Shown one piece after another: positions 39,520-42,149 of a DNA stretch of 64,000 nucleotides. The stretch comes from Escherichia coli (GTDB taxonomy: Bacteria; Pseudomonadota; Gammaproteobacteria; Enterobacterales; Enterobacteriaceae). Under the pieces are notes generated by a model. The model had not been told where the DNA came from, did not search any database, and was given only the letters and a program-made list of their open reading frames with translations. Where the stretch lies: assembly GCF_030013205.1 (NCBI RefSeq), contig NZ_CP122648.1, one strand, 5' to 3'. Numbering within the stretch: position 1 is the stretch's first letter; every line of letters begins with the position of its first letter. The position numbers and the translations under genes were made by a program.

Positions 39520-40704
39520 TTAATTTGCGGCTTCCTGACGATGAAAACCTCGCCACCAGACCAGTAAGTTAACCAGGGCAATCGTCGCGCCAGCCAGACA
39601 AACGCCAGCCCAACCGCCATGTTGCCAGGCTGAGGCTGAAATTAGCGAACCGGCGGCACCGCCAATAAAGTAGCTGGTCATGTAACCTGCGGTCAGGCGA
39701 TTACGCGCATCAGGATGTATTCGATAAATTACCGTCTGGTTAGTGATATGCACGCCCTGCACGGTGAGGTCCAGCACCAGGATGCCGATAATCAGCGCCA
39801 GTACGGAAGTGTGACCAAACCAGATTGCCAGCCATGAAAGTAACAGCAGAAGCAGACCGAAAGTTGTTGTGTGGTGCGATTTGCCCTTGTCGGCAAAACC
39901 GCCCGCCGGACGAGCGCCCAACGCTCCGGCAGCTCCCGCAAGTCCAAACAGACCAATTACACCATCGCTGTAGTTAAAAGGTGGAGCGGCAAGCAAAAAG
40001 GCCATTGAGGTCCAGAGAATGCTGAAGTTGGCAAAGGTCAGGCAGCCCAGCAACGCGCGGGTGCGCAGAATTTTATCGCTGATAAACATGCTGAAAACGG
40101 AACCAAGCAACTGTGGGTAGTTGAGGTGGGTTTCTGATTTCATTTGTGGCAGACCACGCCATAATGCCAGCGCCATCAGTGCCATTAACACCGAGGCAAC
40201 CCAAAAGACGGTGCGCCAGCCGCCGAGGTTTGCCAGCAACCCGGCAACGGTTCGTGCCAGCAAGATCCCCAACAGCAGCCCGCTCATAATGGTGCCGACC
40301 ACTTTGCCGCGTTTGTCTGGTGAAGCCAGCGTCGCTGCCAGCGGAACCAGAATTTGTGCCACGACCGAGAATAAACCGGTCAATGCCGTACCGAGGATCA
40401 TCATCGCCAGCGACTGACTGCTGGCAGTAATTAACATGCCGCCTGCCGCCAGTAAGGTCATCGAGACAATCAGGCGGCGACGTTCAAACATATCACCGAG
40501 GGGAACAAGAAACAGCAGACCTGCGGCATAGCCCAACTGTGCGGCGGTAACAATAAAGCCTGCCGAACTGGCGGAAAGGGAAAAGTTACGCGCGATGGTG
40601 TCGAGCAATGGCTGGGCGTAATAGTTACTGGCTACCGCCAGACCGGTGGCGATAGACATCAGCACGATCAGCGCCGGGCTAAGCTCATGATTAGGTTTAG
40701 TCAT
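39520..40704 (-). CDS. ygaY: MFS transporter YgaY, apparently intact (394 aa)
   Basis: Continuous 12-TMS-like ORF; position matches the ygaX/ygaY locus between ygaZ and proX. Confidence 0.8.
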   Translation of the reverse strand: MTKPNHELSPALIVLMSIATGLAVASNYYAQPLLDTIARNFSLSASSAGFIVTAAQLGYAAGLLFLVPLGDMFERRRLIVSMTLLAAGGMLITASSQSLAMMILGTALTGLFSVVAQILVPLAATLASPDKRGKVVGTIMSGLLLGILLARTVAGLLANLGGWRTVFWVASVLMALMALALWRGLPQMKSETHLNYPQLLGSVFSMFISDKILRTRALLGCLTFANFSILWTSMAFLLAAPPFNYSDGVIGLFGLAGAAGALGARPAGGFADKGKSHHTTTFGLLLLLLSWLAIWFGHTSVLALIIGILVLDLTVQGVHITNQTVIYRIHPDARNRLTAGYMTSYFIGGAAGSLISASAWQHGGWAGVCLAGATIALVNLLVWWRGFHRQEAAN

Positions 40705-41156
40705 TATTTTTGTTCATCAGGTGATGATTAAGCTGGAAATCAATAATAGCGGATGTTGATGAATGTGGGGCGAAAGATAGATTGTTAAAATGTGCGGGTA
40801 ATGGGGAGAGGGTATTTGAAGGTGAAATATGCCACTAAGGCAAATGTTACGTTCACTTCCAGACTATAGCTACTTTGTCACTATTTTGCTGGTGAACGTG
40901 CCAGGGTGGCTCAGTCGCCACCACCCTGGCGACCCAGGCTTTTGGCACAAAATCGCCGCTACGCGGTACATTCGACTTATTTCTTACGGCTATCGGGTAC
41001 GGGCGCGAGGTAACATCCCTGTAAGACGCGCCCTCGCCGCGCATCCCTGCGCGTCGCCCCGGCCTTCAGAAAACGTCTCATCGATTTTCAGCCGGATTAA
41101 AACCATCGCTGCAATTGTTTTACTCACATGAGCATTATCTGCGCGGTTATCAATAT

Positions 41157-42149
41157 TTACTTCTGCGCTGCCAGCGCCTCATTCACCCAGCCATCGAACT
41201 GCTGCTGGTGGGCTTTGATCCAACCATCAACGTGGCCCTGAATATCGCCTTCTGAGGCTTTGCCTTCATGCATAATGGCGTTCTGGGCGTTAATATCTGC
41301 CACTGGCAACTGCATAATGGCAAACAGTTTGGCTGCCGCCGGATTTTTCTCGGCCCAGGCTTTGTTGGCAACGATATGCATGGTACTGACCGGGAAGCCG
41401 TAATTCGCGCCATTCGGCAGTTTGGTATCGGCATTTTTATCGCCCGGCAGTGCGGAGAACGGCACCTGCAACCAGACCACATCTTTCCCCGGTTTCAGTT
41501 CGTTACTCACCCAGTACGGCGTCCAGGTGTAGTAAAACACCGGCTTACCCTCTTTGTAACGACTGATGGTGTCAGCCATCATCGCTGCGTAGTTCCCCTG
41601 ATTATGCGTCACGGTATTGGTCAGTCCATACGCGGCAAGCTGGTGGTTGATCGCACCTTCGCAGCCCCAGCCTGGGTTACAGCCGGTTAAATCCGCTTTA
41701 CCGTCGCCGTTGGTATCGAACAGTTTGGCGATCTTCGGATCTTTAAGTTGCGCGATGTTGGTGATTTTGTACTGGTCGGCGGTTTTCTTATCGATCAGGT
41801 AACCCTGTGCCGCGCCGTTAACGAATACCCCTTCACGATAAAATTTCTTATCGCCACCGGCAGCTTCGTACATGTTGTCATGCAGCGGCGTCCAGTTCAC
41901 GGCGGTGAAGGTTGCATCGCCGGAAGCAAGCGAGGTGTAGCCAACGTTGTAATCCACTTCGCTGGGTTTATTGACGGTATAACCTAATTTCTCCAGTGCA
42001 CGACTGACCAGCAGCGTCTGGAAGGTTTCTTCAGTGATGGTGCTCTGAACTGGATTAACAGTAATGCCTTTGCCCGGCAGATCGGCAGCAAAAGTTTGTG
42101 TAGAGATAAGCGTGGCAAACGCTGTCGCAAAAAGTACGCTATGTCGCAT
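41157..42149 (-). CDS. proX: Glycine betaine/proline ABC transporter periplasmic binding protein ProX
   Basis: Start [21 protein letters not shown] (signal peptide); ORF-track start 42191 is an extension. Confidence 0.92.

Follow-up and report, generated by a model that had tools for sequence, protein, structure and literature searches.

The 64,000-nt stretch of Escherichia coli DNA analysed here (the window) carries, between proX and ygaY, a 272-nt structured element (40843–41114, minus strand) that is a member of a dispersed repeat family and is related to the TwoAYGGAY motif of Rfam. The sense strand of the element is the strand of both proX and ygaY. Taking the evidence as a whole, we favor the reading, to which we assign a probability of roughly 0.55, that this repeat of the TwoAYGGAY branch acts as RNA in the 3′ untranslated region (UTR) of proVWX and may bind a CsrA dimer there.

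On the minus strand, the genes are arranged in the order proV, proW, proX (stop codon at 41157), the spacer (40705–41156), and ygaY (39520–40704). The original prediction, a note made from the sequence alone, had described the spacer as unusually long at about 450 nt, and this is the case: it measures 452 nt here versus 191 nt in K-12. We searched 5,426 complete E. coli genomes with the spacer by megablast, and 5,417 of them matched some part of it; only 543 of these matching genomes (approximately 10%) held at least 80% of its length. Most E. coli genomes matched positions 1 to 92/93 of the query only, at approximately 95% identity, which is the part adjacent to ygaY. Alignments with K-12 and LF82 revealed that a REP/BIME occupies the place of window positions 40798–41156 in these two strains, and the K-12 alignment showed its sequence to be unrelated to the element. 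The proX-ygaY alleles of the window and of K-12 and LF82 differ by an exchange of the whole distal spacer, with no clean insertion. The spacer is long, therefore, because about 10% of E. coli genomes, including this strain with one intact copy, carry the structured element at this place, where K-12 and the majority of other strains carry a REP/BIME. Three shorter segments of the same strand complete the spacer. A 42-nt linker (41115–41156) leads from the proX stop codon to the element and is free of any hairpin or terminator, and a 45-nt linker (40798–40842) follows the element on its 3′ side; both are allele-specific, the latter as judged by the alignments with K-12 and LF82. The ygaY-proximal segment (40705–40797, 93 nt) lies outside the element and is common to nearly all E. 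coli. The ygaY 5′ UTR and promoter are presumably located in it; a promoter scan of 40705–40797 detected no sigma70 consensus.

The middle of the spacer also matched other places in the same genomes at 78–84% identity (blast), and the number of copies per E. coli genome has a median of 3 and a range of 1–10 (blast). Five loci are occupied in E. coli: proX-ygaY, asmA-yegH, yohP-dusC, aqpZ-lysO, and mmuM-tauA, the last of which was found as a whole locus in 18 genomes only. K-12 carries the element at three places (aqpZ-lysO, yohP-dusC, and asmA-yegH), and these three core copies keep their loci in nearly all E. coli; for example, 5,382 of the 5,426 genomes have the aqpZ-lysO copy. Element boundaries were taken from two alignments (A2 and A3), and a covariance model, R1, was built from 14 copies. 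The window copy scores 273.6 bits against R1 (E = 4e-83), and neither blastn nor R1 detected a second copy in the 64-kb window. A 156-bp core (query positions 74–229) was aligned between subfamilies by blastn.

Homologues were found in taxa that include Enterobacter, Lelliottia, Pluralibacter, Kluyvera, Pseudescherichia, E. albertii, Klebsiella, and Citrobacter. Pluralibacter has at least 11 copies, a number of which lie at the ends of contigs, and a single Klebsiella chromosome has 11 places. Conservation across the Enterobacteriaceae had been named as a check in the original prediction, and the family is present in several genera with its fold kept. Beyond this family of bacteria, R1 matched two inverted loci in Pseudomonas fluorescens (approximately 43 bits, E ~1e-11). 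A pattern scan of representative genomes proved too loose: among the matches listed (at least 120 loci), most are chance occurrences in GC-rich genomes, and the loci from gut Firmicutes and Bacteroidales contained no TwoAYGGAY. Homologues in E. albertii, Enterobacter, Lelliottia, Kluyvera, Pseudescherichia, and Pluralibacter were nevertheless recovered by it. The element had no match in phages, and the apparent plasmid matches were set aside, being mostly chromosome-sized records. No annotation of the element was seen in the RefSeq records examined, including that of K-12 at the yohP-dusC copy, and it is absent from the annotated ncRNAs of K-12. Neither the membership in a dispersed repeat family nor the presence and absence between strains had been noticed in the original prediction.

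The 14 full-length copies share 62–79% identity with the window copy. RNAalifold applied to them gave a structure of 57 pairs, 25 of which have compensatory changes; the structure was then slightly extended to 71 pairs, which is the basis of the pairing counts given here. Read along the minus strand from its 5′ side, the element has first a closing stem whose 5′ strands lie at 41082–41095 (P0, 41091–41095; P1, 41082–41089, GAAAAUCG) and whose 3′ strands lie at 40942–40955 (P1, 40948–40955, CGAUUUUG; P0, 40942–40946). P1, also recorded as inverted-repeat pair I7, is paired in 97% of cells across copies with two compensatory pairs; P0 is weakened in the window copy, where, as read from the sequence, three of its five pairs are kept. 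The 5′ strand of the long arm P2 (41058–41081) includes the invariant GGCCGGGGC, by which the three-way junction is formed, and pairs with its 3′ strand at 40970–40997 (ACCCGAUAGCC...); helices 3–6 of this arm are 92–100% paired, with seven compensatory pairs. Two hairpins stand within the arm. Hairpin A (41038–41053) presents the loop motif CAGGGAUG at 41042–41049 on a stem that is paired in 100% of cells, with compensatory changes in four of its six pairs, and hairpin B (41001–41033) presents UACAGGGAUGU at 41013–41023 on a stem that likewise has compensatory changes. A small hairpin, CCGC-GUA-GCGG (40956–40966, helix 9), is 100% paired with one compensatory change (UCGC/GCGA in copy L050).

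The 3′ domain includes the inverted repeat singled out in the original prediction. That repeat is real, and its true site, with arms at 40900–40909 and 40921–40930, is displaced rightward by a few bases from the approximate position first given (about 40893–40927). On the minus strand, the hairpin at 40900–40930 (GCCAGGGUGG-loop-CCACCCUGGC, the loop of which contains an invariant GGCG) has an 11-bp stem and a folding energy of −24.2 kcal/mol (z = −3.4), and none of 200 shuffles folded as well; the corresponding values on the plus strand are −21.3 kcal/mol and z = −2.8. Its helices 10–11 are 93–100% paired across the 14 copies, with compensatory changes in 7 of 11 pairs and in 6 of the 9 core pairs, so that the repeat exceeds what chance would give. 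As judged from the aligned sequences, this hairpin is one conserved helix of the larger fold and is no separate signal. Beyond it lies a terminal hairpin (ACGUUCAC ... GUGAACG(U), 40850–40898; z = −3.1; inverted-repeat pair I9), followed by the conserved 3′ end AAC; its helix 12 is 100% paired and has three compensatory pairs (GCGCUCC/GGAGCGC in the aqpZ and yohP subfamily).

We compared this structure with slid controls and with shuffles. With 71 pairs and 14 copies, 92.2% of cells are paired in the structure versus 38–41% in the slid controls, 29 of the 71 pairs have changes on both sides versus 4–12 in the slid controls, and the covariation score is 0.305 versus at most 0.085. On four of five measures, the observed value was reached by none of 500 shuffles; on the fifth, the count of further pair types, it was not above the 500 shuffles. 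When 29 copies were used, 51 of the 71 pairs were compensatory, a count that is biased toward R1 since the alignment was fitted to that model. The fixation of the core loci, together with a structure kept by compensatory changes at 62–79% identity, argues for selection on each copy and not for recent spread.

The covariation data also bear on the strand. On the minus strand of the window, we counted 27 G-U cells versus 10 A-C cells, which favors a single-stranded role on that strand, and the Rfam TwoAYGGAY matches fall on the minus strand only. The element thus probably acts as single-stranded RNA on the minus strand, as far as sequence comparison can tell. G-T wobbles also arise in single-stranded DNA hairpins, and a DNA-level role is compatible with the same counts.

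The only open reading frame noted in the spacer (40829–41131, plus strand, 100 codons) had been considered non-coding in the original prediction, and we reached the same view. The frame runs antisense to the structured element, has no Pfam hit, and is not conserved among copies; its start lies in the flank, a stretch that is not conserved between loci, and stop codons occur in all three antisense frames of the element in 5 of 14 copies. Given the lack of a Pfam match, the unconserved start, the antisense position, and these stops, we regard the 100-aa frame as non-coding and spurious. The alignment further showed that copies of the element are separated by 1- and 2-base indels, which also speaks against coding. 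In one RefSeq record (H17), the match to the spacer has a 'hypothetical protein' listed under it. Together with the position of the spacer upstream of ygaY on the same strand, the 100-codon frame and this entry are what would recommend an explanation in which the region controls ygaY in cis, as a leader or promoter, or codes for the frame itself. That explanation is highly improbable. The ygaY promoter, which the original prediction had placed among the possible contents of the region, does not account for the element: the genes downstream of the other copies are unrelated or not co-oriented, and the 93 nt next to ygaY, the only widely shared part of the spacer, are intact without the element in most E. 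coli.

We then asked which known RNA the element resembles by scanning the spacer against Rfam at E ≤ 10, a check likewise named in the original prediction. No family reached its own threshold, and the one meaningful match was sub-threshold: TwoAYGGAY (RF01731) aligned over its full length to the minus strand of the window copy with 28.2 bits (E = 0.065; threshold 43). Matches to snoRNA, miRNA, and frameshift families in the same scan were discarded as noise. The other E. coli copies score 29.1–31.5 bits against TwoAYGGAY and likewise fall short of the gathering score (43). The cmscan alignment covers the closing stem and the two hairpins of the motif on one strand, with hairpin A aligned to the first AYGGAY hairpin of the Rfam model. 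The two P. fluorescens loci matched by R1 score 43.0 bits against TwoAYGGAY, which equals the Rfam threshold; being matched by R1 and reaching that threshold, they link the enterobacterial family to the Rfam motif. On these alignments, the core of the element appears to be a gamma-proteobacterial branch of TwoAYGGAY.

TwoAYGGAY was described as probably an RNA and not cis-regulatory, from human gut samples, Clostridiales, and gamma-proteobacteria, with a closing stem that is often very long (Weinberg et al. 2010, PMC2864571); its P1 stems reach up to 24 bp (Weinberg et al. 2010, PMC2864571). The element shares with it the three-way junction, a closing stem that may be very long (in the Pluralibacter copies, a perfect stem of approximately 21 bp), a pair of neighboring hairpins whose loops contain A-N-GGAU, and a multi-copy distribution with no conserved gene association. 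Several copies from Psychromonas ingrahamii were part of the original TwoAYGGAY alignment (PMC2864571), and in our reading of that alignment their flanks are arranged like the 5′ and 3′ domains of the enterobacterial element. The two differ in extent: the Rfam model has 168 positions, whereas the conserved unit here is approximately 270 nt, with P0/P1, the small CCGC hairpin, the hairpin at 40900–40930, and the terminal hairpin lying outside the model.

The loops of the two adjacent hairpins are the least variable part of the fold. The sequence CA-N-GGAUG is invariant in both hairpins in all 14 copies while the stems beneath vary; the window loops read AGGGAU (N = G, where AYGGAY needs Y), whereas other copies read AUGGAU. 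The two loop motifs are spaced 28 nt apart (start to start) in every copy, those of Pseudomonas included, except L060 (29 nt). In Pseudescherichia vulneris, an insertion of approximately 75 nt adds a third such hairpin, CCCCAGGGAUGGGG. The SELEX consensus of CsrA is RUACARGGAUGU, and UACAGGGAUGU of hairpin B fits 11 of its 12 positions; the pattern TACARGGATGT has a single match in the window, against 0.04 expected. For a single CsrA dimer that binds two sites, the reported range of spacings includes 28 nt. In Rfam, TwoAYGGAY and CsrB are placed together in clan CL00106, and CsrB/CsrC and RsmX/Y/Z resemble the element in showing their GGA motifs in hairpin loops. CsrB has approximately 20 GGA sites, far more than the two loop motifs here that fit the CsrA consensus or the three in P. 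vulneris. Unlike the Csr/Rsm sRNAs, the element is dispersed and multi-copy, sits next to gene 3′ ends, carries a large amount of further conserved structure, and comes without a promoter or terminator of its own that we could find.

Binding of CsrA by TwoAYGGAY was proposed independently of this analysis by the authors of RMfam (PMC4333381), and we found no experiment on the proposed binding in the literature. In a CLIP-seq study of CsrA in K-12, no peak is listed for dusC, asmA, or ybjE (PMC5694010), and none of the peak coordinates falls in the yohP-dusC copy or in the searched part of the aqpZ-lysO copy. The half-life of dusC decreased from 3.25 to 1.74 min in a csrA mutant in the same study, a change flagged as not significant (PMC5694010). 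We consider the CLIP-seq data to be weak negative evidence, as multi-mapping reads over repeats may have been lost. From its loop sequences, CsrA is a tentative candidate for the partner of the element, and we hold this part of our reading to be doubtful.

The genes around the copies were also examined. At 17 of 21 loci (16 of 19 independent ones), the element and the gene on its 5′ side have the same orientation, with a gap of approximately 40–130 nt. This bias has a P value of 0.002 under a 50:50 null and of 0.049 when corrected for a simple preference for gene 3′ ends, so that after correction it is borderline. At proX-ygaY, only 42 nt without a hairpin separate the proX stop codon from the element, and proVWX transcripts should therefore read into it. 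The hairpin at 40900–40930 is no proX terminator, another of the possibilities raised in the original prediction: on the transcribed strand, it is followed by ACGUUCACCAGC with no U-tract, and a scan of 40500–41400 detected no minus-strand terminator. The aqpZ-lysO and mmuM-tauA copies are antisense to both of their neighbors, and read-through from these genes thus cannot give the sense RNA.

The last two copies could be expressed only from a promoter of their own, which, along with the conservation of a structured intergenic sequence, is the argument for an independent sRNA gene with its own promoter and terminator that would act by base-pairing with mRNAs. The original prediction had mentioned an unannotated small RNA, which comes nearest of its three suggestions, and part of it stands, in that the structure is conserved, supported by covariation, and unannotated. 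The independent gene does not: scans detected no promoter- or terminator-like site beside either the window copy or any of the three K-12-type copies, neither a sigma70-like promoter on the 5′ side nor an intrinsic terminator on the 3′ side, and for this reason an independent sRNA gene is unsupported. Moreover, the 5′ flanks are unrelated between loci in the alignments, no conserved single-stranded seed is evident besides the GGA loops, and the annotated ncRNAs of K-12 do not include the element. We therefore judge this explanation improbable.

Since the element occupies the exact position held by a REP/BIME in K-12 and LF82, we also weighed a 3′-UTR module of the REP/BIME kind that is independent of CsrA. 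Such a module would block 3′-to-5′ exonucleases, or pause or terminate transcription, thereby stabilizing the proVWX mRNA and insulating ygaY. REP/BIME and the element are alike in being intergenic, mostly just downstream of genes, GC-rich, palindromic, and strain-variable. The co-oriented 5′ neighbor at 16 of 19 loci, with the element 40–130 nt past its stop codon, fits this explanation, as do very stable helices such as that at 40900–40930 (−24.2 kcal/mol) and the location of the asmA-yegH copy among REPs. The differences are of size and design. A REP/BIME palindrome is approximately 35–40 nt long and occurs in hundreds of copies, whereas the element is seven times longer, forms several helices with invariant loops, and occurs in 3–10 copies; a length of approximately 270 nt, a three-way junction, invariant loops, and a fixed 28-nt spacing are needless for a simple protective hairpin. 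The lack of a U-tract or terminator-like site and the two loci antisense to both neighbors also count against it, and we regard a CsrA-independent module as plausible but unlikely. A model of the REP-derived naRNA4 found nothing in window positions 40300–41600, and it matched the spacers of loci L002–L004.

The dispersal of the family raises a further explanation, namely that the element is a non-autonomous mobile or recombination-prone piece of DNA whose hairpins act on single-stranded DNA, as in REP/RAYT, the ends of IS200/IS605, or attC, with transcription being incidental. This would agree with copy numbers of 1–10 in E. coli, at least 11 in Pluralibacter, and 11 in one Klebsiella chromosome; with presence and absence at proX-ygaY; with the asmA-yegH copy, whose orientation is inverted between strains; with head-to-head pairs of elements in P. 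vulneris and P. fluorescens; and with the multi-copy TwoAYGGAY of Psychromonas. The hallmarks of a MITE or insertion sequence were not seen in the alignments: the ends, CAGCG... and ...GUGAACGGAAC, do not form inverted repeats, and no target-site duplication is visible in the flanks. Since the 5′ hairpins bear no relation to the 3′ ones, IS200/IS605-like ends were dropped as a candidate. Genes for a transposase or integrase lie beside none of the copies examined (neighbor genes, Pfam), phages lack the element, and the 'plasmid' matches are mostly chromosome-sized. At proX-ygaY, the spacer is replaced as a whole, and the inversion at asmA-yegH is explained by the inverted REPs that flank that copy. 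The three core copies, fixed in place with a structure maintained by compensatory changes at 62–79% identity, point away from mobility as well. A mobile DNA element is accordingly quite unlikely in our estimate.

The element may possibly be one that was seen before as DNA. The RSA ('BEE95') repeats are described as dispersed intergenic elements of enterobacteria (Bachellier & Hofnung 1996, cited in PMC3751351) and as having a length of 150/151 bp, and the original annotation of K-12 contained 6 of them (PMC5172473). That length is close to the 156-bp blastn core and to the P1-closed domain of the element; the 6 annotated copies stand against 3 element places per K-12 genome. On this basis, the element may equal the old RSA repeat.

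Returning to the reading we favor, a TwoAYGGAY-branch RNA in the proVWX 3′ UTR, its mechanism would run as follows. The element would act as RNA on the proX strand; with no terminator before it, proVWX transcription would read through, and the element would join the 3′ UTR of these genes. On the conserved multi-helix fold, a CsrA dimer would then be offered two invariant GGA loops with a spacing of 28 nt. One outcome might be that CsrA is titrated in proportion to transcription of the host operon; another might be that CsrA and the GC-rich helices protect the 3′ end of the mRNA. What is observed directly is the fold and its conservation; we infer transcription, CsrA binding, and any effect.

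The element accounts for the strain-variable spacer downstream of proU, and it is probably behind the 'polymorphism' calls that resequencing studies have repeatedly made at ybjE/aqpZ and yohP/dusC. K-12 itself carries three copies of this element of approximately 270 nt, whose fold is backed by dozens of compensatory changes and which is unannotated in the records examined and below the Rfam threshold. The enterobacterial family, which was possibly recorded as a DNA repeat decades ago, extends the TwoAYGGAY motif to approximately 270 nt, and through its link to TwoAYGGAY and to the Csr/Rsm clan an orphan motif acquires a host that is genetically tractable. Should the CsrA hypothesis fail, the family remains a well-defined structured repeat. 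A broader, speculative idea, which we think unlikely, is that of a portable CsrA-binding cassette: an RNA module of approximately 270 nt, placed in the 3′ UTRs of unrelated operons across the Enterobacteriaceae and relatives, that would couple host-operon transcription (in this case of proVWX, which is induced osmotically) to how much CsrA is available. If this were true, the TwoAYGGAY motif would gain a function, and the cassettes would form a distributed, strain-variable layer of the Csr network that has been overlooked even in K-12.

Published K-12 data touch two copies of the element. An evolution experiment (PMC11510482) listed intermediate-frequency "mutations" at K-12 position 915,226 (ybjE/aqpZ), and the same kind at 2,229,177 and 2,229,205 (yohP/dusC; locus L127:420-692, one of the loci that we extracted from other genomes). 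These positions fall within the two most mutually similar K-12 copies of the element, and the calls are probably the product of cross-mapping or gene conversion among element paralogues. In K-12 dusC mRNA, a copy of the element lies shortly after the dusC stop codon; the half-life of this mRNA is listed as 1.74 min in a csrA mutant and 3.25 min in the wild type, a difference flagged as not significant (PMC5694010 Supplementary Data 2).

The copy in the asmA-yegH spacer lies in opposite orientations in two E. coli strains (L002:2362-2725 and L003:1890-2244). The inverted segment is 90% identical between the two and is flanked on both sides by inverted REP sequences, an arrangement suggesting that the flip arose by REP-mediated inversion. 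The first of these loci also carries a JUMPstart element upstream of wza (L002:4832-4870, +; 53.8 bits), as expected at the colanic acid cluster.

Outside E. coli, five Pluralibacter gergoviae contigs (L069, L070, L072, L073, and L074) stop at one identical point, which is the loop of the helix equivalent to the hairpin of the original prediction (...GGCGGCGGCT). The short-read assembly of P. gergoviae was evidently broken by the element repeat, and therefore the real copy number in this species is probably greater than 11. Pseudescherichia vulneris has two copies arranged head-to-head, 44 nt apart (L060:3191-3538, −, and L060:3582-3854, +). One P. vulneris copy has gained a third GGA-loop hairpin (CCCCAGGGAUGGGG) from an insertion of about 75 nt; the other is degenerate (88.5 bits), with the GGA missing from one loop. 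An inverted pair, spaced about 330 nt apart, was also present in Pseudomonas fluorescens PS662 (L124:8973-9056, −, and L124:9390-9620, +). Both copies scored 43.0 bits against the Rfam model TwoAYGGAY, exactly its gathering threshold, and both were also matched by R1, the covariance model built from enterobacterial copies. A Twister-sister ribozyme match in a Bacillota MAG (L086:2296-2378, +; 52.7 bits, threshold 34) lies at a chance-match locus and is unrelated to the element.

At the proX-ygaY spacer, the adjoining MFS transporter gene ygaY is intact in the window (39520-40704, −; 394 aa), in contrast to K-12 MG1655, where the annotation lists ygaY as a pseudogene. In E. coli Z1324SEC0014 (L129:925-1460), the ygaY-proximal spacer runs for its first 60 nt and is then followed, where proX would stand, by a tyrosine recombinase/integrase gene, which suggests that an island inserted at this junction. 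The mmuM-tauA copy of E. coli 0H26 (L004) is near-identical to the element copy of Lelliottia nimipressuralis (L107), and the entire mmuM-tauA locus occurs in just 18 E. coli genomes; this near-identity and narrow distribution suggest that the segment was acquired horizontally.
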